Shown piece by piece: positions 31,928 through 51,305 of a stretch of DNA of 64,000 nucleotides (the first letter of the stretch is position 1; each line of letters begins with the position of its first letter). Made by a program: the position numbers and the translations under genes. Source of the stretch: a virus; the IMG/VR virus record IMGVR_UViG_3300045988_111617. One strand, 5' to 3'. The notes under the pieces are model-generated. The model had not been told where the DNA came from. It searched no databases and saw nothing but the letters and a program-made list of their open reading frames with translations.

Positions 31928-32482
31928 TTAAACAATTTCAAGTTCTATATTATTACCTTTCATCTTATTGTAGAGTTCAGCAAATACCTTCTTACCATTC
32001 ATAAGATATTCTTCTGCTGAAAGGTTGCCTACTCCTATGCATCCCTGTACCAAGGAATCTCTCTTTGGACCATCTGCAACATGAATAAGAACTCCATCAT
32101 ATCCTTTTACATCAATAAGTCTTGGAAGTTTGCCTTTACATGTTTCCATATAGAAGGGATACTGTGAAAACTTGGGACTTACTACATCCAAGGTGACTTT
32201 ATATATCCCTTTTGGTATGGCGGTTTTGCCAGGTATCTTCAATAACTGTATCTGACCAATGCTCATGTCCTGTGTTAGGCCCCTGTCCTTATCCTCCAGA
32301 GTATCACAGAAATAGACTCCATCTACATACAGCTTACCTAAAGTGTAGCTATTCCTTGTTATAGTTCTCTTTATAGTTAGTTTCATCAGTGTCAAAATCC
32401 AATAGTTTGAACAAATCATCAAGCTCTGTGTCACTATAAGGACATCTGTTCTTGCAGGATTCAACTGTACAGATTTTACCAA
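31928..32482 (-). CDS. Putative cell-wall hydrolase with an L,D-transpeptidase-like (YkuD-type) His...GCIG active-site pattern; start may be internal (Met at about 32386) given overlap with the upstream gene
   Basis: C-terminal LIHVADGPKRDSLVQGCIGVGN resembles the His / S-x-GC(I/V) catalytic arrangement; adjacent to two membrane-protein genes. Confidence 0.35.
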   Translation of the reverse strand: MVKSVQLNPARTDVLIVTQSLMICSNYWILTLMKLTIKRTITRNSYTLGKLYVDGVYFCDTLEDKDRGLTQDMSIGQIQLLKIPGKTAIPKGIYKVTLDVVSPKFSQYPFYMETCKGKLPRLIDVKGYDGVLIHVADGPKRDSLVQGCIGVGNLSAEEYLMNGKKVFAELYNKMKGNNIELEIV

Positions 32483-33405: not shown

Positions 33406-33436
33406 CAAGAGGTTAAGTAGAACACTTAACCTCTTG
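33406..33436 (-). terminator. Strong terminator after the BACON-protein array
   Basis: 13-bp stem CAAGAGGTTAAGT/ACTTAACCTCTTG, then CTTTTTTTATTTAT on the - strand. Confidence 0.7.
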
Positions 33437-33458: not shown

Positions 33459-35123
33459 TTAGGACAGTGTCCAAGAATCATTAGATGTGATAGTCAATGT
33501 CTTAGTCTCACCAGCTGCAATGAATGACAATGTATCAGGAGAGAGGTCAAGAGTTGAGTTAGAACCCTGCTGGTTGAATGTGATGTCCTTAGTAGCAGTC
33601 TTACCACCTTCACCCTCAGCTGAGATTGTAACAACAAAGCCCTCTCTTGGAGCAGTTGTAGGGTTAAGATTAACAGTAACCTTACCTGCATTAGTATCAA
33701 GTGAGAAGCCTTCCTTAGCAGTCTTAACTGCATATTCAGCAGAGAGCTGTACCTTGTTATCTGCTGGAGTAGCCTCAGTCCTTGTAGCACCTGAAGTGTA
33801 AGTAACTGTCTGCTTCAAAGCAGGAACAATAGCATAAGTCTCACCTGGAGCAGCAAGAGATACTGGAGTAGCCTGACCAATAGTTACTGCACCATAAGTT
33901 GCAGTGTTAGCTGCCTGATATATAGTGAGTGTCTTAGTAGCTTTCTTACCACCAGCACCTGTTGCAGTAATTGTAATGACACCTGCTTCAGTCTTTGCAG
34001 AAACTGCCGTACCCTTAGAAGCCGCTGTAACAGCTGCACTATAAGTGATAGCAATAGGGTCAAATGTTGGATTGGTAGAACCCTCAACATCCGTAATACC
34101 AACTTTTGCTCCAGAAGTATAAGTAATAACCTGTGCTGCTATTGAGCCCTCATCAGACCAAATAATATCACTTCCTTCAACTGTACCTCCTGCGGCAGGA
34201 ATATCATTAGCTGAAGGTACTCTTCTAGAAATATTAATCTCACCGTACGTAGCAGTATTAGCAGCCTGGCTAACAGTCTGTGCTTTATATACAGCAGAAG
34301 ATTTACCATTGAGAGTAACCTTAGCTGTCACTGATGCTACCTCAGTAACTTCAGATACAGTAGTACCCTTAGAAGTAGCAGTTACAACACCTGTACTCGT
34401 ATTAGTGGCACCTTCAAATTTAAATGTAGTTCCTGAAATAGGAGCCGCAAGAGTACCTGAAAGTGTGCCTCCATTTGTAGTAGAGTTATTCCATCCCCAA
34501 GCCTGTGAGTAAGAAAGGGTAGGTGTCTTGCTGCCACCTGATGCTGGGATATTTCCAGCAGGGTAGCTGAATGCAGAAATAACAGGAGCAGCATAGCTCT
34601 TAACACCTGCTGCCTGATTGATAGTAAGCTCACCTGAAGTTACATCAGCATTTGCATTCTTAACTGCAAACTTAGCAACTAATGCAGATGTTGATTTATT
34701 CTCTGGAACAATTACAGTAAGAGTAAAGTCATATATTGCAGATGCACCTGGGTCACCATCCACAACAGTATCTTTACTACCATCCCAGGATGCATCAGCT
34801 ACTCCTGCTACAGCAAGCTCGTAAACAAGACCTGGAATACTAGAAGTCCCTGCTACAATGCTAAGATTAGCAGAGTTAGATTTACCCTGAATAGTAACAC
34901 TTTGACCTACTTTATCCGCAGAATAAGTCTTTGTTGCAATAGTAATTACCTCAGCAGCACCTACCTGAGTTACAGCTGTAGTATCACCAGCTCCACCTGC
35001 TGTTGTACCAGTAATAGTACCCTCTCTGGCAACTCTACCCGTATAGGCAGCAGCAGTGATTTTACTTGAGCCATTCATGGAACCTTCAGCGGTTTCAATT
35101 GTAATCCATTTTGGTTTAGCCAT
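33459..35123 (-). CDS. 554-aa BACON-domain protein, Thr/Ala/Gly-rich Ig-like repeats; paralog family with N-terminus MAKPKWIT
   Basis: N-terminal WIT..G..G....ITA...R.GTIT pattern typical of BACON; low-complexity beta-rich body. Confidence 0.65.
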   Translation of the reverse strand: MAKPKWITIETAEGSMNGSSKITAAAYTGRVAREGTITGTTAGGAGDTTAVTQVGAAEVITIATKTYSADKVGQSVTIQGKSNSANLSIVAGTSSIPGLVYELAVAGVADASWDGSKDTVVDGDPGASAIYDFTLTVIVPENKSTSALVAKFAVKNANADVTSGELTINQAAGVKSYAAPVISAFSYPAGNIPASGGSKTPTLSYSQAWGWNNSTTNGGTLSGTLAAPISGTTFKFEGATNTSTGVVTATSKGTTVSEVTEVASVTAKVTLNGKSSAVYKAQTVSQAANTATYGEINISRRVPSANDIPAAGGTVEGSDIIWSDEGSIAAQVITYTSGAKVGITDVEGSTNPTFDPIAITYSAAVTAASKGTAVSAKTEAGVITITATGAGGKKATKTLTIYQAANTATYGAVTIGQATPVSLAAPGETYAIVPALKQTVTYTSGATRTEATPADNKVQLSAEYAVKTAKEGFSLDTNAGKVTVNLNPTTAPREGFVVTISAEGEGGKTATKDITFNQQGSNSTLDLSPDTLSFIAAGETKTLTITSNDSWTLS

Positions 35124-35228
35124 AAAAATTAAATTTAATTTAAATGTTTTTAAATAGTTAATAAGTTTTTAACCTTATTAACTATTTGTTGTATTTATGT
35201 ATTAAGAAATGTATTGTTTCAAACAATT

Positions 35229-36299
35229 TTATAAAATAGAATTGAAAGTCAATGTAGGATAATTTGATGAAATCTTTAGGGTTTGACTAGTAGTTGTCTT
35301 CCTAAGAGGAATTCCTTCTGTATTTTCAAAATAAATATATCCTCCACTTTCATGTTTTGTGAATGTCATACCATTTATGACAAGATTCTTGTTCAGAGTT
35401 GCATAAATAACATAATCATAACATTTTATAGTAAATCTACACAAAGCCACGGTTGACCACTCTTTAGCCCACTTGAACTGTGAACCCATGATATTTTCAA
35501 CCACCATAGGACAACTCAAGCTCTGTCTAGACCCAGCTCCAAGAGTAAATCTTCCAACCCTAATGTTATTCATTGAAATATCATTATTCAATCTCTGACC
35601 ATCAGGATAGAGGTCTGCAAATACATTAAAGGTGACCTCTGATATTGAAGCAGAATCAAGTGTTTCTTTTGTAATAGAAGCTGATAAGAGACTCACAGAT
35701 GGAAGACTCCAAGAGCAAGTAGGTTCACTCGGTGCAACAAGGCTTTCAGCGGAAATCACTTCATTTAATCCGTTAAATGCGTTTTGAATCTTAGCAGCTA
35801 CAAGTTGTGAAACATAATCTTTGTCATCTGGGTCATTAACCAACAAAAGTGGAACCCAGTCTATTGTTGGGTCATTAGATGATGTTATACCGAAATATAA
35901 TTCTGTTGAGTTAAGACTATTAAGCGTTTCAAGGTTTGTGTTTAAGTCAAACTCACTCATATACTCTATATTCACAACAAGAGTGCTGGCATTAATAGAC
36001 TCTATCTTGCCAAACTCCCCATAAGAATAACTAGGGGAAACATCATCATCTGCAAAATAAAGAGACTGACCCACGCGTTTCTGTGGAATCTCCCCTCCAG
36101 TATATTCAAATGTAATCTTACCTTTGGTTGCTTTCCCTGCCTGAGTTACTTGTATTTCGTGTGTTAACCCACTAAGTGACTTTACAGTTACTATTCCACT
36201 CCTTGAAGAAGTTGATGTATTTTGTGCAAGAGTGATGTTAAATATTCCTGCTCCTGTACCACTTGAAGGATTAACTGTTATCCAATTTGGTTTAGCCAT
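35229..36299 (-). CDS. 356-aa BACON-domain protein (N-terminus MAKPNWIT)
   Basis: N-terminal BACON-like segment ending VQVTQAG; paralogous start to neighbours. Confidence 0.65.
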   Translation of the reverse strand: MAKPNWITVNPSSGTGAGIFNITLAQNTSTSSRSGIVTVKSLSGLTHEIQVTQAGKATKGKITFEYTGGEIPQKRVGQSLYFADDDVSPSYSYGEFGKIESINASTLVVNIEYMSEFDLNTNLETLNSLNSTELYFGITSSNDPTIDWVPLLLVNDPDDKDYVSQLVAAKIQNAFNGLNEVISAESLVAPSEPTCSWSLPSVSLLSASITKETLDSASISEVTFNVFADLYPDGQRLNNDISMNNIRVGRFTLGAGSRQSLSCPMVVENIMGSQFKWAKEWSTVALCRFTIKCYDYVIYATLNKNLVINGMTFTKHESGGYIYFENTEGIPLRKTTTSQTLKISSNYPTLTFNSIL

Positions 36300-36314
36300 A
36301 ATATCTTATTTTAT

Positions 36315-36965
36315 TTATTCTACATTCCATGTTACAAATGGTTGTGTTTTCACAGAAACACTGGAAGTTTGTCCATCTGCTGGTGCTGAAATAGATGATG
36401 TATCTACTACAAGACCTTCCTCTATACATGTACAACTACTGTCATCCTTAGATACATAAACATCTCCTTTACCTGCAACTGAAGTGGCAGTTATTGTGTT
36501 AAATGATAATGCTGTTTTACTATTAGCTTTAAAAGGAGTAGTAAAGATTTTGCCCAAAGCTTTAACTATGGTTGAGCCTTTTGTTATAGTAGCTGATAAT
36601 ACTAAGTCAGAACTGCCGTCAGGAAATTGAAGAGGAAGCCCATCATTTAATAACTTAACTCTAATTTCATAACTTGAATCTTCATCCTCTGCCTTATCAC
36701 TCCTAAAAGCATACATACAAGAAGATATTTTGAATAAACTTCCTTCCTGTACTCCTGTAAAAACTACAGTCAATTTGTAGGTAACTGCTCCATATTGTAG
36801 CACCTTTACTTGTTTAGAAGTGCTTCCATTTCCTGAACTCACTGTTATTGTACCTTCTCTACAATATCTTTGAGTGTTAGATTGTGCTTCAACAGATATA
36901 GTGTCATTACCTGAACCTGAATTTTTACTTAATGTAATCCAATCTGGTTTTGCCATTTTATTCAT
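36315..36965 (-). CDS. 216-aa BACON-domain protein (N-terminus MNKMAKPDWIT)
   Basis: BACON-like N-terminus ending VKVLQYG. Confidence 0.65.
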   Translation of the reverse strand: MNKMAKPDWITLSKNSGSGNDTISVEAQSNTQRYCREGTITVSSGNGSTSKQVKVLQYGAVTYKLTVVFTGVQEGSLFKISSCMYAFRSDKAEDEDSSYEIRVKLLNDGLPLQFPDGSSDLVLSATITKGSTIVKALGKIFTTPFKANSKTALSFNTITATSVAGKGDVYVSKDDSSCTCIEEGLVVDTSSISAPADGQTSSVSVKTQPFVTWNVE

Positions 36966-36970
36966 ATTTT

Positions 36971-36999
36971 TAACAAGGGAGATTAAAACTCTCCCTTGT
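36971..36999 (-). other. Perfect 10-bp hairpin (ACAAGGGAGA/TCTCCCTTGT, loop 7 nt) in the 51-nt gap between two BACON-family genes; no U-tract
   Basis: Read directly from sequence. Confidence 0.5.
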
Positions 37000-37015
37000 A
37001 AGTTACTATCAATTA

Positions 37016-38248
37016 TTAATCAATATTCCAAGAAGTATTAGATTCAATTTGTAAAGTCTTTGATTCTCCACCAGAGGTAAATTCCATATAATTAGGATTA
37101 ATATCCACAAATTTCTCTACTTCAAGAATGACATTTTTAGTTTCAGTTTGAACTATTTTATACTTTTCTGTATAAGTCTTATATCCCTTCTTAGATACTT
37201 TAATACTAACATCAGTATTATAATCTGCTGTAATGGAGTTTTTAACTTCCCCATTTAATTCTACAACAGCATCTGTTGGAGTAGGATTTATAGTGAGAGT
37301 ATATTTATTTGCAACAAGAGTTACATCTACTACAGTATCCTCATTTACTGTTTGAGTGCCATTCTTAGATTCATAATGAGGAGCTTCTACAGACCAAGTA
37401 ACTTCTGAGTTTTTATCAATAACAATTGAATTAGTAGTTTCTCCGTTTATAGTTACAACTGCATCTAGTGGAGAAATTACATTTACAACAAAGTTAATTT
37501 TATTTTCTCCTATTACATCTAGAGATACTTGCATTGAAGTACTTTCTGTAACAATTATACTACCACTTTTTTTTATATAGCCACTTTTAGATACTTCCCA
37601 AGTTACTACTGAGCCTTTATCTACTGTAATAGATTTTCTAGCAACTCCATTAAGTCTAACTGTACAATCATTAGGAATTGGACTTACAGTAAATGTTGCT
37701 TGTTCTCTATTAAGTTCAGGTTTAAGGGTTATATCTTTATCTACCAAAATAAACTCTTCATAAGTTACATATCCCTCAGCCTGTACTTTAACATTGACTG
37801 TAGAACCATTAACAATCTGTAAAGAACTTTGCTTTATGCCATTTATAAATACAGTTGCATTAGGAGTAACTGGTATTACAGTGAGTGTATATTTAGTAGT
37901 TAATGTACTTAATACTCTATTGATATCATCTAAACTTTTATCAATACTATCAAAGTGTATATTAGTTTTCCTTATAAATGCTCTCAATAAAGTATTGATA
38001 TCCATTACTTTTTCTTCAAGAATTTCTATTCTATGAAGTGCATCTCCAATATCTCCATTTATATTTTGCCTTACAAATGTATAAAGTTGGTCTAAGGTCA
38101 TCGACCTATTTTTTCCATCCTTTACAAAGGCTATAAAGTCTTTCTTACTAATAGATGTCCAATCATCCAGAGGTTTAAAATCTGAATCTCTTTTACACAT
38201 TGCAGAAAGCTTTTTTGATATCTCTTGTATTTGTTGTAATGTAAACAT
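37016..38248 (-). CDS. 410-aa protein with four PEGA-like beta-sandwich repeats and a C-terminal BACON-like half segment (ESKTLQIESNTSWNID)
   Basis: Repeats TPNATVFINGI / PNDCTVRLNGV / PLDAVVTINGE / PTDAVVELNGE spaced about 70 aa apart. Confidence 0.6.
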   Translation of the reverse strand: MFTLQQIQEISKKLSAMCKRDSDFKPLDDWTSISKKDFIAFVKDGKNRSMTLDQLYTFVRQNINGDIGDALHRIEILEEKVMDINTLLRAFIRKTNIHFDSIDKSLDDINRVLSTLTTKYTLTVIPVTPNATVFINGIKQSSLQIVNGSTVNVKVQAEGYVTYEEFILVDKDITLKPELNREQATFTVSPIPNDCTVRLNGVARKSITVDKGSVVTWEVSKSGYIKKSGSIIVTESTSMQVSLDVIGENKINFVVNVISPLDAVVTINGETTNSIVIDKNSEVTWSVEAPHYESKNGTQTVNEDTVVDVTLVANKYTLTINPTPTDAVVELNGEVKNSITADYNTDVSIKVSKKGYKTYTEKYKIVQTETKNVILEVEKFVDINPNYMEFTSGGESKTLQIESNTSWNID

Positions 38249-38404
38249 TCTATTCTTGTTTATAAGTTACTTGCAATGTCCAACTATCATTAGATTCAAC
38301 AAGGAGAGTTTTAGATTCATCTTCTTGTGTGTTGTAATTTAAAGATTCTGGAAGAAGCCTAATATAAGAAGTGGAATTATTCTTTAATAGGTTTCTAAAC
38401 ATGC

Positions 38405-38851
38405 TCATTTGAAAATCCCCCAAACAGCTAAATTATTCAAAACACTTACAACTATTACAGAATTTGCTTCTGAAACTGGACTTTTGCCATCCTGCCATTT
38501 AATGGTAGAATCTCCAATTACTTTATGTACAGTCTCTCCTATTGTAATATAATAAATCACTTCATTAGTGAGAGAAGGATTAGAAGTTATCATATAATCC
38601 TCTGTAAGGGTAGGTACTTCATGATAAGTAACTCCTCCACCAAACAATCTCCACTTTCCAGTAATAGCATCTACTGAATTATTTGGGTCATACTTATATG
38701 TATTTCTATCTTCTTCACAAAATGAAATATGTCCAGGGTCTAATGCAGATTCTTTAAAAGCTTTCATAGCTTCTAAAGTAGGAAAAGAATCTCTGGTAAA
38801 ATTAGAAAGTCTTCCCTCATATTTTATATTAGATGCAAATTGTACTGCCAT
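38405..38851 (-). CDS. 148-aa hypothetical protein
   Basis: ORF, abuts next gene. Confidence 0.55.
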   Translation of the reverse strand: MAVQFASNIKYEGRLSNFTRDSFPTLEAMKAFKESALDPGHISFCEEDRNTYKYDPNNSVDAITGKWRLFGGGVTYHEVPTLTEDYMITSNPSLTNEVIYYITIGETVHKVIGDSTIKWQDGKSPVSEANSVIVVSVLNNLAVWGIFK

Positions 38852-40404
38852 TATTTAACAAATCTAAATTTATAATCAGTTACTGAAGATGGATTTTGTA
38901 AAGCATAAATATAGTAATTTTCCCCATCAATTACCATTTCTTGCTCTTTTACAAAATCATCATAGGGCATTGAAGTGGCATCATCTAATACTTTTGTTAG
39001 AAGTCCAAAAGTAGAAGGATACGCATAAACTGCTCTCTGGTCTTCTAAATTATATGTTAGAGTAGCAGAAGCAGAGGTACATACTTCTTTCGTTAAAGAA
39101 GTTATCATAGGCTCTGTAATACTTCCTACAGAAGTTCCTACAGGTAAAGCACCATAATATCTATAGTAAGTCTTCTTGAAAGTAGCTGTAGTGCTTCCAT
39201 TATAAGTCTTGCCCTGGTAAACTACTACAACTCTATAAGTTGTAGTTGTAGTTACATCAGTAAATACTTTATAACCTGTTGCTGGGTCTACTGTTTCTCC
39301 ATTTACAGTTACTGAATCAGGAGTAAGAGTCTGTCCATTCTTCATGAGTTTCCAAGACACCATAACTGTCTGAGAAGTGCCTTCATCATAAGTTCCTCCT
39401 CCAGATACAGAAAGGGTAGTAGGAAATACTTTCTCATCAAGTTGAGCAAGCAATTCATTCATTGCATTAATCTTCTCAGTGATTACTTTATTCTGAACTG
39501 GATTTACAGAAGTCTCACTAAGAGCCTCATCTACTGTTACAGTAGAACCTCCTTGAATCTCAATATTTCCTTCTCCAGTAATTGCTTGTCCATTTACAGT
39601 TTTAAACTGTTGATTAGAAATTGCAGTAGATACTTCCTCTTTAGAAGCTAAACCAGAAACATCAGGAATATCTGCTTTAGGAGCATAGCTCTCTAACTTT
39701 GTGTCCACTTGTGCTTCTGTAATAAAACCAGAAGTATCTGGAATATCTGTCTTTAAAGCATAGTCTCCTTTAGGCTGTTTCTCTCCTATCTCAGTATTTA
39801 TCTGATTAATACTTTGAGTAATAACCTTATTTTGAACTGGATTAATAGATTCTGTACTAAGAGCATCATCCACTGTAACAGAGCTTCCTCCTCCTTGGAT
39901 TTCTATATTACCCTCTCCAGTTATTTCCTGGTTATTAATAGTCTTAAACTTCTGGTTAGAGATAGCATCAGTAACTTCTGTCTTAGTAGCTAAATCTGTA
40001 GTATCTGGAAGCTCACTCTTAAGAGCATACTCTCCTTTTGGCTGATAAAGTTCCTGTGCTTTTACTTCAGATAACAGTCCTTCTATTGAAGGTATATCAG
40101 ACTTTTTAGCATAGTCAAGAAGTGCTGTATTTAAGGCATCTTCTGTAACATAGTTTTTAAGGTCTGGAATTATAATCCCTAATTCTTCGAGAGAAAGGTT
40201 TCCTTCAAGGACTACATTGTTAATCTTAGGTTTATTCTCTAAGTCATTGTAGTCTGAAGTTCCTCCTCCAGAACTAGTACCTATTTTTCTCCATCCTCCA
40301 TCATATACATGGATTGTATTAATATTATTGGCACCTGCTTTAACCCATAATACATAAGGAGTTGCAGGGGGATTAGTAGAAAATATAATATCTCTAATTA
40401 TCAT
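38851..40404 (-). CDS. 517-aa fibre-like protein (head or tail fibre) with an internal tandem duplication
   Basis: Two ~85-aa repeats (KGEYALKSELPDT...NPVQNKVITQ / KGDYALKTDIPDT...NPVQNKVITE) also visible at DNA level; immediately downstream of portal. Confidence 0.55.
   Translation of the reverse strand: MIIRDIIFSTNPPATPYVLWVKAGANNINTIHVYDGGWRKIGTSSGGGTSDYNDLENKPKINNVVLEGNLSLEELGIIIPDLKNYVTEDALNTALLDYAKKSDIPSIEGLLSEVKAQELYQPKGEYALKSELPDTTDLATKTEVTDAISNQKFKTINNQEITGEGNIEIQGGGSSVTVDDALSTESINPVQNKVITQSINQINTEIGEKQPKGDYALKTDIPDTSGFITEAQVDTKLESYAPKADIPDVSGLASKEEVSTAISNQQFKTVNGQAITGEGNIEIQGGSTVTVDEALSETSVNPVQNKVITEKINAMNELLAQLDEKVFPTTLSVSGGGTYDEGTSQTVMVSWKLMKNGQTLTPDSVTVNGETVDPATGYKVFTDVTTTTTYRVVVVYQGKTYNGSTTATFKKTYYRYYGALPVGTSVGSITEPMITSLTKEVCTSASATLTYNLEDQRAVYAYPSTFGLLTKVLDDATSMPYDDFVKEQEMVIDGENYYIYALQNPSSVTDYKFRFVK
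39500..40070 (-). repeat. Intragenic tandem duplication (two ~250-nt copies) inside the fibre gene
   Basis: DNA-level similarity between 39500-39760 and 39810-40070 (approximate). Confidence 0.5.
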
Positions 40405-40411
40405 AGCTTAA

Positions 40412-42835
40412 TTATTTACTACTTACTGGTTTCTTATTTATTTGTTTCTCCTTTAATCTGGCATCCTCTTCCTGCTTATCTCTCTGTACCTTGAGTTTCT
40501 CCCTTTCAAGTATCATTTTAGCATCAAACTCTCTTATCTGCTCTCTAAGTTTTGCAGCTGCTTCTTCAGACATAGGCTCCTGAATACCATCATTAATGTC
40601 TACCTCTGAATCCTGAAGTTTAGATTGAGCATTAATCTGAGCAACAAGAATCTTGGTCTCATTATCTCTCTGATTAAGTATATCTTCCTGCTGCATCTTC
40701 TGCATTTCAGTCTGCTGCTGCATCTGAGCCTGTTGCTGCTGAGCCTGGAGTTCCTGCTGCTGTTGCTGCTGAGCCATTTCTCTCATCTTCCTTTCATCAT
40801 TCTCAACCATTCTTTGCTTTTCAGCAAGGGATGAAGAACCGTATATCTTCATTATAGTTGAGAAGGAAAGAGTCTGGTTTTGTAGGGCTGCCTGAGCAAG
40901 TGTCTCAAGCTGAGACTGTAACTTTTGAAGTCCTTCAGAGTTGTCTACTACAAGACCATAGTCAGCTTCTGCAAATTCATCTCCCTCTATATTTACTATC
41001 TGCATTGAACTGTCAGATAATATATACTGGAACTTCTTGCTTCTCCCTTTAAGGGCTGCTTTTGCAGTTTCAAGGAAGCACTCAAGTGCTCTCCTCTTCA
41101 CATCATCATGTATAGTAAAGAGCCATTCTGTTATATGTGATGACTGAAGAGTTGCCCTCTCAACACCACCTACAGTCTCTCTATTGCTTATCTGACCTTC
41201 TCTCTGTCTTGTGATACCTGCAACTTCAGACATCTCAAGCTTAATAAATTCAAGAAGGCTTATATATTGCTGTATGTTATTACCCCAGTCAGCATCAATC
41301 ACACCTGTGGAGGCATTATTAAGTGCTCCTGCAAGCTTTCCTGTTGCAGCACCTATATTTCCCTCTTTGAAGGAGTCTACTACAGCAATTCCATTAACCT
41401 TGGCGTAGTACATCCATTTCTCTATTTCCCATCCTTTTGGAACCTTGGCAAGGTCAAGTTGTACAATCTTACCCCAGTTCCTGGCAATCATCTTGTTAAG
41501 TCTATCATGAACAGCATCATACAAATAGTTATACTGCTTCATCATATCAACAAGAGAGAAAGGTCTTGATTCATTAAGGTTATATATAGAACCTACTATA
41601 CCAAAATGACATCTTGATGGATTTGAAAGCCTGTTGTACTGTACAACTCTTGGTCTCATATTAACATAGATATCCTGACCAATTTTAGTTCCTTCCCAAG
41701 CTTCATTAATCCAGAATGTTTGTTCTTCTTCTCCTAAGTCAGGATTACAGATATAAGTCTCTGGGTAGAAGTTGAAAGTCTCTTCACCTGTTTCAGGGTC
41801 ATATGACTTTACCTTCTTTATCTTCCTTCTTGATTTCCAGTACATTCTTAGAACTCTAAGATTACCTGCAAGGTCATAAGGAAGAAGAGAGTTCACTACT
41901 GCATCTGAAAACAGGTTAAGTGGGTCAAAGTAGAAACCATCAGTAACTACTTCATCCCCTATCATATTATTATTTACAAATCCATACCTCTCATCTATAT
42001 TGTCCATAGAGTCTGAATAGGCTTGACCTATGTGGTCAGGCAACTTTTCAATATACTCCATGTCCTTTTTAGAGAGAACATCATAGAAAGTATCTATAAC
42101 CCTTCCTGGGCTCCAGTAATCTTCTATGATTATAACATCTGCATCTTCTATCCTGTTGGAATAGCCAGACTTGAACACTCTTATCTTAAGAGGATTCACC
42201 CTTTCAATGACTGGCTCTCCTCCTACTATATCACACTGATAAATCTCTTCACCTACAGTCATGGCATCCATGAAACCATTGTTGAAGAGAAGAGGCATAT
42301 TATATTCCTTTATATAATGATTGAGAAGAGCATTTGCTCTTATCTCTCTCATATCCTGCCACTGGTATGTATAGTAGTCATTGAGCTTCTCTAACTCCTG
42401 ATTGAAATCTTCCTCAGAGAGTGAGTTGTCAGCAATTAACTGCTGAAGTGAAGCAAGAAGCTGCTCCTTTTTATGGTCTTCAACCTCTGTTACAGCATTA
42501 GGATTAGTCACTACCACCTTAAAGTCAAATACCCTCTTTGTCTCCTCACCCCTAAGAACATTCAGTTTGGAGTTCATAATAGGATAGTGCTGTATTCTAT
42601 CAGGTATATAACCTACCTTTATACTTTCTGGGTTTATGATTGCTTCCATGTCCTCCATATGGAGCTTTCCATTAAGGAGGTCATAGTTTATCTTCTTATG
42701 TATTGTGCTTTTCCTTACAGGAGAATAGTTGAAGAATGTCTTGGAATCTGCCCAATCCATACATTGCTTCCTCCACTTCTTTGTCTTCTGTGAGAAGGGC
42801 AGTTGTTGCCTTGGAAAATTAATAAATTCTGACAT
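40412..42835 (-). CDS. Putative portal protein (807 aa) with Gln/Glu-rich C-terminal tail
   Basis: ATG start; size and position directly downstream of terminase large subunit; poly-Q acidic C-terminus. Confidence 0.55.
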   Translation of the reverse strand: MSEFINFPRQQLPFSQKTKKWRKQCMDWADSKTFFNYSPVRKSTIHKKINYDLLNGKLHMEDMEAIINPESIKVGYIPDRIQHYPIMNSKLNVLRGEETKRVFDFKVVVTNPNAVTEVEDHKKEQLLASLQQLIADNSLSEEDFNQELEKLNDYYTYQWQDMREIRANALLNHYIKEYNMPLLFNNGFMDAMTVGEEIYQCDIVGGEPVIERVNPLKIRVFKSGYSNRIEDADVIIIEDYWSPGRVIDTFYDVLSKKDMEYIEKLPDHIGQAYSDSMDNIDERYGFVNNNMIGDEVVTDGFYFDPLNLFSDAVVNSLLPYDLAGNLRVLRMYWKSRRKIKKVKSYDPETGEETFNFYPETYICNPDLGEEEQTFWINEAWEGTKIGQDIYVNMRPRVVQYNRLSNPSRCHFGIVGSIYNLNESRPFSLVDMMKQYNYLYDAVHDRLNKMIARNWGKIVQLDLAKVPKGWEIEKWMYYAKVNGIAVVDSFKEGNIGAATGKLAGALNNASTGVIDADWGNNIQQYISLLEFIKLEMSEVAGITRQREGQISNRETVGGVERATLQSSHITEWLFTIHDDVKRRALECFLETAKAALKGRSKKFQYILSDSSMQIVNIEGDEFAEADYGLVVDNSEGLQKLQSQLETLAQAALQNQTLSFSTIMKIYGSSSLAEKQRMVENDERKMREMAQQQQQQELQAQQQQAQMQQQTEMQKMQQEDILNQRDNETKILVAQINAQSKLQDSEVDINDGIQEPMSEEAAAKLREQIREFDAKMILEREKLKVQRDKQEEDARLKEKQINKKPVSSK

Positions 42836-49382: not shown

Positions 49383-49569
49383 TGTCTTGAAATTTAAGCA
49401 TAATAGGTCAAGATATACTGACCTCCTTCCTTAGCAAGAGATACAATATCATCTCTCTGTATGCCCAGTTCATTAGACTGTTTTACTATCTCCCTGATAG
49501 TATCACCATAGATGGCACACATTATTTTAACATTCTTATCTTCTCCCATAGTATTGAATATTAATTAGA

Positions 49570-49651
49570 TGCGGGAGGGGGACTTGAACCCCCGAGGCTA
49601 AAGAGCAGGAGCTTATGAGACTCCCCAGATACCAACTTCTGACATCCCGCA
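49570..49651 (-). tRNA. tRNA-Met/Ile2(CAT): tRNA with anticodon CAT (Met or Ile2-lysidine) but with a 14-nt extra arm (type-II-like), 82 nt
   Basis: Hand fold: acceptor TGCGGGA/TCCCGCA, D-stem TCAG/CTGG, anticodon arm GGAGT-CTCATAA-GCTCC, extra arm GCT-CTTT-AGC, T-arm GGGGG-TTCAAGT-CCCCC. Confidence 0.55.
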
Positions 49652-49661
49652 ATATTTATTG

Positions 49662-49734
49662 AGCCTTCTATTGGAATTGAACCAATATCTACTGATTACA
49701 AATCAGTTATAATAACCTTTATATTAAGAAGGCA
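49662..49734 (-). tRNA. tRNA-Thr: tRNA-Thr(TGT)
   Basis: Acceptor GCCTTCT/AGAAGGC, anticodon arm ACTGA-TTTGTAA-TCAGT, T-arm ATTGG-TTCAATT-CCAAT. Confidence 0.65.
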
Positions 49735-49774
49735 ACACTCTTATAGTATGCTTATAAGCCTTAAGAGTTTATTG

Positions 49775-49857
49775 TGGGGATAGAGGGATTTGAACCCTCA
49801 AGAGACATGCTCATGGGTGTTTAAGACCCATATGTTTACCAGTTTCATCATACCCCC
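49775..49857 (-). tRNA. tRNA-Leu: tRNA-Leu(TAA), type II
   Basis: Acceptor GGGGGTA/TATCCCC, anticodon arm TGGGT-CTTAAAC-ACCCA, long variable arm, T-arm GAGGG-TTCAAAT-CCCTC. Confidence 0.65.
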
Positions 49858-49864
49858 AATCCCT

Positions 49865-50323
49865 TTAATAACTTCTTGTTGAATCACAAAGTTCAAACAA
49901 GTACTTGTACTTCCATATGTTGTGAATGAAAGTCTCACACTCTGACCTCACTCCTGCATATTCCACTGAGTCTGGAATTGATGAGTAGAATTTAAGGGTC
50001 AGGTTCTTCACTTCAAGTATGAACTCCATTGCATTAAGAGTGTTACTCTCAGTTCCAACTATCTTGTTTGGAGCCATGTGACCAAGTATTCCTTGCATCT
50101 CTTCTGCAAGAGAGTCCTGATAGTCACTTAAAATCTCAAGAAAGTCATCCAGATATATATGAATATTCTTCTTTGGAGCTGCCCAGTGAAGATTCTTACA
50201 TTTAGCCTTCCATCCTTCAAGTCTGTTTATAAAACTTATAAAGAATGAGAAGGTATCTGGAGTCTCATCTTTTGGTGCTTGACCAGGAGCTGGTATAGGG
50301 TCTAAAAGTAAATCTCCTATCAT
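49865..50323 (-). CDS. 152-aa hypothetical protein embedded in the tRNA array
   Basis: ORF between tRNA-Leu and tRNA-Phe. Confidence 0.5.
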   Translation of the reverse strand: MIGDLLLDPIPAPGQAPKDETPDTFSFFISFINRLEGWKAKCKNLHWAAPKKNIHIYLDDFLEILSDYQDSLAEEMQGILGHMAPNKIVGTESNTLNAMEFILEVKNLTLKFYSSIPDSVEYAGVRSECETFIHNIWKYKYLFELCDSTRSY

Positions 50324-50372
50324 TTCTTCTGCAAATATAAGTATTTTATTTTAAACTTCCAAATAAAATTGT

Positions 50373-50446
50373 AAGTTTTTAGTGGAGACTGTGGGAGTTG
50401 AACCACACTTTTCTGGATTTTCAGTCCAGCACATTTACCACTAATG
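50373..50446 (-). tRNA. tRNA-Phe: tRNA-Phe(GAA)
   Basis: Acceptor GGAGACT/AGTCTCC, D-stem ACAT/ATGT, anticodon arm CTGGA-CTGAAAA-TCCAG; T-arm register slightly irregular. Confidence 0.6.
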
Positions 50447-50462
50447 TTAAGTCTCCATAGAT

Positions 50463-50535
50463 GGAAGCATAGACTCCAGGGTAAGAATCGAACTTACACA
50501 AAGTAGTTTTGCGGACTACTGCATTAACCTTTCTG
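50463..50535 (-). tRNA. tRNA-Cys: tRNA-Cys(GCA)
   Basis: Acceptor CTCCAGG/CCTGGAG, anticodon arm GTAGT-CCGCAAA-ACTAC, T-arm GTAAG-TTCGATT-CTTAC. Confidence 0.65.
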
Positions 50536-50540
50536 CTACC

Positions 50541-50614
50541 TGGAGAATCAGGGTGTCTTATTGGAGTTGAACCAACATCATCTTGAGCCACAATCAAGTG
50601 CTCTACCATTAAGC
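50541..50614 (-). tRNA. tRNA-His: tRNA-His(GTG)
   Basis: Acceptor GGTGTCT/AGACACC, anticodon arm CTTGA-TTGTGGC-TCAAG, T-arm GTTGG-TTCAACT-CCAAT. Confidence 0.65.
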
Positions 50615-50616
50615 TA

Positions 50617-50689
50617 AAGACACCAGTGGGCAAATAAGGATTTGAACCTTCATTTCCTGAGTATCAGTCAGGGTTCCTAACCAATTAGA
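50617..50689 (-). tRNA. tRNA-Ile: tRNA-Ile(GAT) (one T-T mismatch in acceptor stem)
   Basis: Anticodon arm CCTGA-CTGATAC-TCAGG, T-loop TTCAAAT. Confidence 0.6.
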
Positions 50690-50695
50690 AGATAT

Positions 50696-50766
50696 GCCCA
50701 TTAGCAGGTCCTTAAGGATTTGAACCCTAATCAAGGGTTTTGGAGACCCTTATGCTAACCAATTGC
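50696..50766 (-). tRNA. tRNA-Trp: tRNA-Trp(CCA)
   Basis: Acceptor GGTTCTT/AAGGACC (one G-U), anticodon arm AGGGT-CTCCAAA-ACCCT, T-loop TTCAAAT. Confidence 0.6.
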
Positions 50767-50772
50767 ACCAAG

Positions 50773-50845
50773 AACCCAAGTGGCTGGGGTAGAAGGAATT
50801 GAACCTTCATCCACAGATTAACAGTCTGTTGCTTGACCTTCCAGC
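50773..50845 (-). tRNA. tRNA-Asn: tRNA-Asn(GTT)
   Basis: Acceptor CTGGGGT/ACCCCAG, anticodon arm ACAGA-CTGTTAA-TCTGT, T-arm GAAGG-TTCAATT-CCTTC. Confidence 0.65.
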
Positions 50846-50886
50846 TATACCCCAGTTTCAACTAAAAAAAAACAAATGAGAAATGT

Positions 50887-50957
50887 GGACTCTTGGGGAA
50901 TTGAACCCCAACTCTCTGCTTGCAAAGCAGAAGTGCTAACCATTATCACTAAGAGCC
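50887..50957 (-). tRNA. tRNA-Ala: tRNA-Ala(TGC)
   Basis: Acceptor GGCTCTT/AAGAGTC (G-U at 2-71), anticodon arm TCTGC-TTTGCAA-GCAGA, T-arm TGGGG-TTCAATT-CCCCA. Confidence 0.65.
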
Positions 50958-50962
50958 CAAAG

Positions 50963-51036
50963 TAGGGAAGAAAGGGCTCGAACCTTCATCTTCTACATCC
51001 CAAATGTAGCCAATTAACCAATTATTGTACTTCCCT
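50963..51036 (-). tRNA. tRNA-Pro: tRNA-Pro(TGG)
   Basis: Acceptor AGGGAAG/CTTCCCT, anticodon arm CTACA-TTTGGGA-TGTAG, T-arm GAAGG-TTCGAGC-CCTTT. Confidence 0.6.
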
Positions 51037-51044
51037 ATAACAAT

Positions 51045-51150
51045 CATATTGCGGAGAGCAATGTACTTGAAACATATCCCCCTGAGAGAACCTCATGTTT
51101 AGCAGACAGAGCCAGAATCTGTAGTGCTACCATTACACCACATCCCAGGG
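51045..51150 (-). ncRNA. tRNA-like segment that does not close into a canonical cloverleaf: tRNA-Gln(CTG)-like 5' half (acceptor, D-arm, anticodon arm ACAGA-TTCTGGC-TCTGT) plus a separate T-arm-like hairpin (ATGT-TTCAAGT-ACAT); degenerate, intron-containing or non-canonical tRNA
   Basis: Hand folding; no complementary 3' acceptor strand found for either part. Confidence 0.25.
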
Positions 51151-51232
51151 TACCTACTATTCATATGTAACTATAATGTACACTTTAATTATATATGTCT
51201 GGAATCTGTAGGTTGGTTCTTAACCAGTTTGT

Positions 51233-51305
51233 TGAAGGGGAAAGACTCGAACTTTCATCTACCTGTTTCAAAGACAGGAATGTTTACCGTTACACCACCC
51301 TTCAA
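51233..51305 (-). tRNA. tRNA-Gln: tRNA-Gln(TTG)
   Basis: Acceptor TGAAGGG/CCCTTCA (U1-A72), anticodon arm CCTGT-CTTTGAA-ACAGG, T-arm GAAAG-TTCGAGT-CTTTC. Confidence 0.65.

Follow-up and report, generated by a model that had tools for sequence, protein, structure and literature searches.

The 64,000-nucleotide (nt) viral record IMGVR_UViG_3300045988_111617 of IMG/VR (the window, by which we mean the whole of that stretch) is a segment of a crAss-like phage genome, with a portal protein 72 to 76% identical to those of cr128_1, DAC15, and crAss001-like Steigviridae. Downstream of its terminase and portal genes (40412 to 42835), on the minus strand, lies an array of genes in which one protein fold, the BACON domain, is divided between neighbors. 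Below, an N-terminal half of BACON at the C terminus of a protein is called a tail (T), and a C-terminal half at the N terminus is called a head (H). The terminator that closes the array is followed by genes for spanin-like, holin-like, and L,D-carboxypeptidase-like proteins, then by a gp31-like gene and that of the major capsid protein. By synteny, this is the gp21-to-gp26 slot of ΦcrAss001, between the portal gene and the lysis and major capsid protein genes, and the tail-region placement made in an earlier reading of the bare sequence (the original prediction) is supported to that extent. In ΦcrAss001 the slot encodes gp21, a trimeric head fiber, and gp22 to gp26, which are tail fiber and tailspike proteins (PMC10172136). 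The features of the array, in order from the portal gene, are as follows, where aa stands for amino acids, ORF for open reading frame, HMM for hidden Markov model, and MFE for minimum free energy; head and tail positions are those of HMM matches.

38851 to 40404, minus strand: p517, an ORF immediately after the portal gene, for a fiber-like protein
38405 to 38851, minus strand: p148, a conserved module protein ending in ..LAVWGIFK, always directly before the mini-protein
38250 to 38408, minus strand: the mini-protein, 52 aa (MSMFRNLLKNNSTSYIRLLPESLNYNTQEDESKTLLVESNDSWTLQVTYKQE), a conserved 17-aa N-peptide and then an N-half BACON tail only
37016 to 38248, minus strand: p410, 410 aa, proposed tail-fiber anchor; four β-sandwiches and a tail, no head
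36974 to 36998, minus strand: stem-loop in the p410-p216 spacer; 9- to 10-bp stem, no T-tract; MFE -18.4 kcal/mol, z -5.0
36315 to 36965, minus strand: p216, 216 aa, starting MNKMAKPDWIT; head, ~120-aa β-rich body, and tail
35229 to 36299, minus strand: p356, 356 aa, starting MAKPNWIT; head (36135 to 36299, E 5.7e-24) and an unrelated ~300-aa body
35152 to 35187, minus strand: AT-rich hairpin of 14 to 17 bp in the 105-nt p356-p554 spacer; 94% complementary; MFE -16.4 kcal/mol, z -4.0
33459 to 35123, minus strand: p554, 554 aa, starting MAKPKWIT; head (34959 to 35123, E 2.3e-23) and tail (33465 to 33560, E 3.6e-9)
33406 to 33436, minus strand: terminator-like hairpin closing the array; 14 pairs and then CTTTTTTTAT (T-run); MFE -23.4 kcal/mol, z -6.9

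A BACON fold divided at gene boundaries

The original prediction described an expanded array of four paralogous proteins, three of them with nearly identical MAKPxWIT starts. The three starts are as described: at the DNA level they form a family of 44-nt direct repeats (66 to 80% identity), with 40-nt direct repeats at the tails as their counterpart, and the first 57 to 68 aa of p216, p356, and p554 are 39 to 42% identical (BLASTP; E 1e-7 to 1e-10). The similarity among these proteins ends at about residue 60, beyond which their bodies are unrelated, and they are therefore not paralogues in the usual sense. Similarly, p410 resembles p554 and the mini-protein over its last ~35 aa only, apart from some repeat similarity. 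What had been taken for an expanded array is thus homologous at its connector ends and no further.

The three N termini had also been read as BACON domains. Pfam BACON (PF13004; cut-off, 25 bits) does match them, with 42.1 bits for p216, 38.8 for p356, and a borderline 24.9 for p554, and BACON_2 (PF19190) matches p356 with 27.1 bits; however, the heads align only to positions 42 to 93 of the 94-position BACON_2 model and so are half-domains. Positions ~2 to 41 are found at the C termini of the preceding proteins, the missing N-terminal half being the last ~35 residues of the mini-protein, p410 (..NPNYMEFTSGGESKTLQIESNTSWNID), p216, and p554, with the motif LxF..G..K.L.I.SN.SW. Joined tail to head, the halves match BACON_2 at positions 2 to 93, 4 to 89, 5 to 89, and 14 to 93, and the join raises the score from 23.4 to 38.1 bits, from 27.1 to 40.2 bits, and, for the p554 head, from unlisted to 35.0 bits. 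Four of the five joins score 35 to 40 bits; the fifth, the end of p356 with the p554 head, covers positions 19 to 93 with 22.8 bits, under the 25-bit cut-off.

Solved structures place the cut within the fold. The p410 tail joined to the p216 head aligns gap-free over the junction to residues 16 to 81 of 3ZMR (the BACON domain of BoGH5A) and residues 37 to 112 of 8VA4 (the BACON domain of a GH16 enzyme), and the junction maps inside both domains. The “MAKPxW” start is the mid-domain (L/K)PDW motif of BACON preceded by Met-Ala; the gap between the two conserved Trp residues is 7 to 8 residues in split and intact domains alike, and the split halves retain the hallmark residues of intact ones. An HMM scan of the 64-kb window detected heads at three places (E ~1e-23), tails at four (E 1e-5 to 1e-9), and not a single intact BACON; an array protein has at most one head and one tail. 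By sequence, the halves are members of the BACON family, and no array protein holds the complete ~90-residue immunoglobulin (Ig)-like β-sandwich of that family in one chain. AlphaFold2 (AF2) places four strands in the head and two in the tail; its model of p216 has a predicted local distance difference test score (pLDDT) of 87.6 with moderate confidence at both ends, and the only Foldseek matches of this model in the PDB are to generic tandem-Ig proteins (integrin, complement), C3-type MG tandem domains among them.

The fold is cut at this one loop in ~60 viral contigs, on three unrelated phage backbones. We retrieved loci of three kinds, namely 80 related through the portal, 63 that carry the MAKPxWIT DNA pattern, and 42 with the mini-protein; the counts of split position cover the first 143 loci and the window. 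In these, N-half matches invariably end 0 to 9 aa before a stop codon (82 of 82), and, of the 96 C-half matches, ~80 have their first residue no more than 2 aa from a Met. This HMM also detects 28 intact internal BACONs in these loci and is thus able to recognize whole domains. Dereplicated, the sequences form 19 clusters of tails and 16 of heads. A tail-ending gene lies 2 to 103 nt upstream of 62 of 81 heads, and every mini-protein locus (42 of 42) has a head-first gene downstream. When genome contigs were searched with the MAKPxWIT DNA pattern, all of the matches listed, at least 120, were chance matches. The original prediction would have fallen had the array been a single misassembled gene; this candidate is excluded by recurrence, the same boundaries being present in >100 independent protein clusters and dozens of contigs. 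In L085, L100, L136, and similar loci (contigs of ~40 kb, GC content of ~0.5), proteins of 920 to 1,085 aa with two intact BACONs are encoded just upstream of the module, so that intact and split versions coexist in the same phages.

The order of the halves is colinear: T, then H…T, then H. The ~40-kb lineage with a GC content of ≈0.5 reads T53, HT550, H700-935 as its main pattern in ~30 loci; L142 and L289 are without the HT cassette and read T59, HF701, and their tails and heads stay balanced. The ~50-kb, AT-richer phages read T, H, H...T; the lineage of the window reads T52, T410, H...T213, H356 (or H222), H...T554; and L001 reads T, T532, H...T554, H170. Proteins with a head only include p356 and others of 170, 314, and 701 to 935 aa, and those with a tail only are the mini-protein and the p410 family. 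Cassettes change among close relatives, in which p356 gives way to a 222-aa gene, p216 is absent, or an extra 170-aa gene is present. Homologues of p216 form 41 clusters, all of ~210 to 226 aa with the same ends; those of p356 form 88, nearly all starting MAKPxWIT; and p554 orthologues of 550 to 560 aa occur in three backbones. Backbones of differing GC content (0.35, 0.40, 0.44, and 0.51) with unrelated flanking genes have only the module genes in common (the C-terminal part of p517, p148, the mini-protein, p356, p554, and a fragment of p410); the module therefore moves horizontally.

Both halves are also conserved. Compared with L003, the mini-ORF has a nonsynonymous divergence (pN) of 0.16, a synonymous divergence (pS) of 0.68, and a ratio of nonsynonymous to synonymous rates (ω) of ≈0.10, and its N-terminal 17 residues are more constrained still. 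In p554, pN among close relatives is 0.05 in the head, 0.15 to 0.21 in the body, and 0.01 to 0.06 in the tail; against orthologues from another backbone, the tail has a pN of 0.25 with pS saturated (~0.97). Bodies diverge 3 to 5 times faster than termini, and no positive selection on them was seen (ω, 0.26 to 0.46). Of the proposal that the array is diversifying, the variable cassette content and the faster bodies are supported, but diversifying selection is not. We thus regard as shown that the domain is divided, that the cut has a constant position, that it is conserved and under purifying selection, that the gene grammar is colinear, and that the module is mobile.

The p410 protein and other genes of the array

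Residues 1 to 47 of p410 (38108 to 38248) are 30% identical to residues 2 to 46 of ΦcrAss001 gp22 (BLASTP), a short alignment with a score of 56 versus 22 ± 4.5 for shuffles (0 of 2,000 as high) and with common motifs (FT.., RKDTDF/KRDSDF, and NGKN/DGKN). Residues 1 to 26 of gp22 dock in the crAss001 tail hub, and gp22 carries further fiber proteins (PMC10172136); on the strength of this alignment, the p410 N terminus resembles a gp22-like tail-hub docking peptide. Past residue 47, p410 has no similarity to gp22 and no polygalacturonase- or tailspike-like body. Residues 52 to 117 (37898 to 38095) are predicted by AF2 to form a long helix or coiled coil, followed at ~37124 to 37897 by four β-sandwiches of the gp29 type (PF25641, PEGA-like). 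The four PEGA-like repeats of the original prediction are there as four β-sandwiches of the PEGA or carboxypeptidase-regulatory type, but their best match is Head_fiber_dimeric (PF25641; E 1.4e-41, 140 bits, four stretches), and PEGA itself (PF08308) is far weaker, with 24.2 bits against a cut-off of 20.8 in two stretches. The protein matches gp29 residues 52 to 116 in PDB 7QOF (E 1.7e-10), and its repeats are 36 to 46% identical to the gp29 C-terminal domain, four times over (BLASTP). All matches lie within gp29 residues 41 to 119, and the p410 N terminus has no similarity to gp29 residues 1 to 50, whose capsid-binding segment (residues 1 to 58) fits the winged-hexon pocket. The p410 protein ends in its tail (37019 to 37117, E 1.4e-9 by HMM). 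Its family has 145 clusters at E ≤ 0.001, and no BACON annotation was found among the 120 clusters listed. From those 120 we sampled 19 relatives, 51 to 96% identical to p410, and all 19 stop right after the tail Trp, 18 of them within 2 to 3 aa and P0112 after 7.

The ATG of the mini-protein overlaps the p148 stop codon (ATGA), and its tail is matched at 38271 to 38372 (E 1.8e-5). Members of its family have 51 to 86 aa, and in the 86-aa member P0047 an N-half BACON tail occurs twice in tandem and a head is lacking. Compared with the gp22 N terminus, the N-peptide of the mini-protein shows no significant similarity. The p148 protein, which has no Pfam, PHROG, or PDB match, is 84 to 86% identical to its counterparts in L265 and L087 and 48% identical to that of the GC-rich L085 lineage. 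In p517, the C-terminal ~270 aa are 71 to 75% identical to the gene before the 148-aa gene in L265 and L087, where the flanks are unrelated; since only this part is common to the module in unrelated phages, the p517 N terminus seems to be backbone-specific. Its similarity to the N terminus of crAss001 gp21 is weak (62 of 2,000 shuffles score as high), and we do not use it as evidence. Relatives of p517 range from 374 to 517 aa, and p517 has an internal duplication (..PKG[ED]YALK..[DI]PD..NQ[KQ]FKT[IV]N[NG]Q[EA]ITGEGNIEIQGG..).

The probable start of p216 is at 36956, giving 213 aa, because homologues begin at the second Met; its head is matched at 36789 to 36956 (E 6e-23) and its tail at 36318 to 36422 (E 2.7e-6). 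The C terminus of p356 (..SQTLKISSNYPTLTFNSIL, ~35232 to 35288) is at most a degenerate tail, with no significant tail HMM match. The p216/p356 homologues P0011, P0012, P0208, P0216, P0250, and P0254 and the locus L265 (6001 to 7470) have a 70- to 130-aa Cys-rich insertion with one or two ferredoxin-like CxxCxxC...CP motifs (a faint match to Pfam Fer4), which, judged by these motifs, is possibly an iron-sulfur or metal-binding module in a phage fiber protein. In the p356-type P0208, P0216, P0250, and P0254, it sits exactly between “MAKPx” and the head Trp; P0011 and P0012 start differently. The p554 body is rich in Thr, Ser, Gly, and Ala and has internal repeats of ~115 aa (33588 to 34680; direct-repeat spacing, 345 to 354 nt) with weak signatures like those of the BACON C-half; these are probably divergent Ig-like repeats.

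Every array gene stops with TAA, doubled in two cases; the spacers measure 15 to 105 nt and hold further in-frame stops; and each head has a conserved ATG and an AT-rich leader. Strong hairpins follow tail-ending long genes, with GC-rich stems in the 40-kb lineage too (z, -4 to -6), and no strong hairpins were found in the spacers after the mini-protein. For this reason, a cassette seems to comprise an H...T gene with an AT-rich leader before it and a hairpin after it. No PHROG family was matched by any array gene, and megablast and tblastn with the region, p410, and p554 against GenBank phage records matched the portal only, with no homologue of p410 or p554.

Elsewhere in the window, 12 tRNA genes (Met, Thr, Leu, Phe, Cys, His, Ile, Trp, Asn, Ala, Pro, and Gln) cluster at 49568 to 51304 on the minus strand, and isolated tRNA genes at 56532 to 56606 and 63358 to 63432 on the plus strand are Lys-ttt and Ile-tat. 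No suppressor tRNA was seen among the tRNA genes of the window, consistent with an absence of stop-codon recoding. The sign of the GC skew and the coding strand both switch at ~5700 and ~54000, which marks these positions as the bounds of one long minus-strand structural or late block. In close relatives, a GIY-YIG-like homing-endonuclease gene (MRGVIYKYTNLVNGKVYIGQT.., 212 aa; L001, 11168 to 11806; L003, 19894 to 20532) sits between the holin-like and L,D-carboxypeptidase-like genes, where the window (~32350 to 32480) is without it. The 184-aa ORF listed at 31928 to 32482 probably has its true start later (MKLTIKR..).

A proposed joint between chains and its alternatives

In total, we posit that the half-domains complement each other in trans and that the connector formed in this way, a plug and socket, links swappable adhesin or fiber cassettes in chains to virion anchors, a proposal that we regard as evenly balanced between right and wrong. 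An upstream protein ends in the first ~35 to 40 BACON residues (predicted strands A to C, to ..SNxSW plus 2 to 3 aa), and the ~55 residues that are left (M-A-KPxW[IL]T.. to ..V.Q) open the next protein; in this model, the tail and head of different polypeptides would associate, noncovalently, into one full BACON sandwich. Tail-only proteins would be initiators or anchors, with p410 docking into the tail hub via its gp22-like N terminus. The N-peptide of the mini-protein might bind another component of the virion or module, or the mini-protein might be an assembly cap, and the double-tailed P0047 would, under complementation, be a bivalent adaptor. H...T proteins (p216 and p554) would be extenders, and head-only proteins (p356) would be distal terminators with variable, presumably ligand-binding bodies. 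Cassettes could then be inserted, deleted, or swapped by recombination with assembly intact, since the joint would be a generic one and the loop at which it lies does not vary. We infer the physical complementation in trans, the order of assembly, and a location on the tail rather than on the head. More broadly, and with confidence that falls slightly short of that in the connector itself, we speculate that the split BACON is a universal joint in gut phages, with fiber chains of initiators, extenders, and terminators, a mini-protein adaptor or cap, and mobile swapping.

What favors complementation in trans is the combination of orphan halves, a constant split site, a colinear and usually balanced order, and balance maintained after loss of a cassette. 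It is favored as well by the conservation of core residues (L, F/Y, I, and W) in a ~35-residue piece that is unable to bury them alone. The BACON_2 matches and structure alignments of the joins, the hallmark residues retained in the halves, the gp22-like N terminus of p410 in the gp21-to-gp26 slot, and the sharing of nothing but module genes between backbones count on the same side. Moreover, the existence of both tail-only and head-only orphans implies that closure within one chain is not the general solution.

Several observations weigh against this proposal. No adjacent tail accompanies 19 of the 81 heads; the window has four tails to three heads, with only the terminator after the p554 tail; and L090 has one tail and three heads. 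The p216 tail is under relaxed constraint (ω≈0.9 to 1.8), and the C terminus of p356 is degenerate as a tail. The Cys-rich insertion ahead of the head Trp means that a head need not be at the very N terminus. In the AF2 model of p410, the orphan tail has a pLDDT of 81 to 85 and the two strands that are also predicted for the tail of p216, so that it does not look disordered without a head; because it is predicted as in p216, the comparison does not separate pairing in cis from pairing in trans. Finally, the tail/head HMM was partly built from window sequences, and its matches were checked against Pfam coordinates and PDB alignments.

Could the half-domains instead be relics of gene fission or of recombination in BACON DNA, serving as linkers or boundaries with no re-association? 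The direct repeats of 44 nt at heads and 40 nt at tails would fit such a history, as would cassette gain and loss exactly at the junctions (L142 versus L085; the window versus L001 and L003), the unbalanced counts of some loci, and the relaxed p216 and degenerate p356 tails. Yet core residues in both halves are under strong purifying selection despite saturated synonymous divergence; the mini-protein is nearly all tail and is nonetheless constrained (ω≈0.1) and always kept beside head genes; the p410 family ends right after the tail Trp in each of the relatives sampled; and junction DNA that is only 66 to 80% identical is a poor substrate for frequent homologous recombination. We consider relics unlikely, if still the strongest of the alternatives.

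A second possibility is that the domain closes in cis, the body being an insertion, or that H...T proteins form head-to-tail homopolymers, with complementation in trans confined to the mini-protein and head-only proteins. Both p216 and p554 hold both halves; p554 ends the array in the window, in L003, and in L087, which leaves its tail without a downstream partner; its own tail and own head give the fullest BACON_2 match of the five joins (positions 2 to 93, 35 bits); and balanced counts are equally compatible with cis closure. On the other hand, gain or loss of an H...T cassette between tail-only and head-only genes (L085 versus L142) is simpler as a chain, the ends of the p216 model are of only moderate confidence and its tail is predicted alike in the headless p410, and the tail-only p410 family goes unexplained. 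This we rank a little below the relics and likewise as doubtful.

The original prediction saw expanded paralogous adhesins, each with a complete N-terminal BACON glycan-binding domain, diversifying for host range or mucus retention. The Pfam BACON matches at three N termini, the variable bodies, and the epithelial adhesion published for phage BACON/Ig-like proteins (PMC13370021) speak for it, but the heads are half of a structural domain, the bodies are unrelated with no ω above 1, and the tails and the mini-protein are left unaccounted for, and we find it improbable. Least probable by far is an artefactual split, in which frameshifts from assembly or sequencing, stop-codon recoding, or programmed read-through or bypass would yield fused proteins: some crAss-like phages do recode stop codons, and the p216-p356 and p356-p554 junctions are in frame, but the TAA stops and further spacer stops, the out-of-frame p410-p216 junction, the conserved ATG and leader at every head, the lack of matching take-off and landing codons for bypass, and the same boundaries in hundreds of contigs assembled independently (JGI, ENA, Logan, and NCBI) argue against it, and we reject recoding, read-through, bypass, and misassembly.

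Relation to known systems

Phage BACON proteins are known as intact single or tandem domains, as in the tandem repeat of crAssphage gp64 (de Jonge et al. 2019, PMC6949934), and BACON/Ig-like proteins of crAss-like phages displayed on another phage are reported to confer epithelial adhesion as “modular adhesins” (Apjok et al. 2026, PMC13370021), which for phage BACON proteins other than these is indirect support for carbohydrate or mucin binding. The array proteins are like these in fold family (PF13004 and PF19190, “Viral BACON domain”), in belonging to Bacteroidota gut phages, in lying beside structural or tail genes, and in that a phage has several Ig-like ORFs; for both, a role as adhesins is plausible. 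In contrast, the published proteins are intact in one polypeptide, and the array divides the domain between adjacent genes at a fixed loop; the tandem intact BACONs of gp64 are not found in the array proteins. Neither PMC6949934 nor PMC13370021 mentions half-domains, no junction peptides occur in the supplements of PMC13370021, and searches of open-access full text found no account of a split BACON or of phage fibers joined by strand complementation.

The fibers of ΦcrAss001 (Bayfield et al. 2023, PMC10172136) are alike in genomic slot, in the gp22-like N terminus of p410, and in its gp29-like repeats, and alike in principle in that short N-terminal peptides anchor fibers and gp22 bears further fiber proteins. 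They are unlike the array in that gp22 to gp26 are tailspike, hydrolase, or lectin-like proteins with no BACON halves, and p410 is without the capsid-binding part of gp29.

The novelty, then, lies in a conserved and mobile split-BACON connector architecture, intact phage BACONs being known already. This matters because annotation, counting, and engineering now treat the BACON/Ig-like proteins of crAss-like and other Bacteroidota phages as self-contained “BACON-domain adhesins.” If complementation in trans is correct, annotation pipelines give half-domains the wrong label and overlook both the mini-protein and the tail-bearing partners, none of which is annotated as BACON. It would also provide a testable answer to how crassvirus multi-protein fibers hold together and trade specificity modules across backbones, a natural and orthogonal split-domain tag by which gut phages could be loaded with cargo or new receptor-binding modules, and a counterpart in viruses to the donor-strand complementation of pili, with mobile swapping of putative receptor- or mucus-binding cassettes between unrelated phages. 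If it is false, what is left is still a widespread, clean case of gene boundaries fixed within a fold, in need of another explanation.

Several systems rebuild a fold or a fiber from separate chains. In complement C3, the MG6 domain comes from one precursor that is then cleaved; split inteins splice covalently; and SpyCatcher is engineered. Each is like the proposed joint in that one compact domain is rebuilt from segments of two chains, and none of them recurs as a genetically encoded connector between the structural genes of phages. Among receptor-binding proteins, anchor-and-branch systems such as the Klebsiella KP32-type depolymerase pairs, G7C gp63.1/gp66, and the CBA120 tailspikes share with the array their tandem genes, conserved docking ends, and variable, swappable distal parts, a modular “LEGO” on one anchor, but their docking modules are complete domains (T4 gp10-like, XD), and no fold is cut by a gene boundary. 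In chaperone-usher and Bacteroidota type V pili, an incomplete Ig-like subunit is completed by one or more β-strands of its neighbor, giving noncovalent polymers. These too have initiator, extender, and terminator subunits, and their chaperone is conceptually like the tail-only mini-protein. Pili donate one strand, whereas the phage array would donate about three, almost half of the sandwich, in a complementation that we infer, and it would do so in the setting of a phage virion, with no usher, periplasmic chaperone, or protease. Donor-strand complementation in pili and the anchor-and-branch receptor-binding protein systems are the functionally closest counterparts of the split-BACON array.

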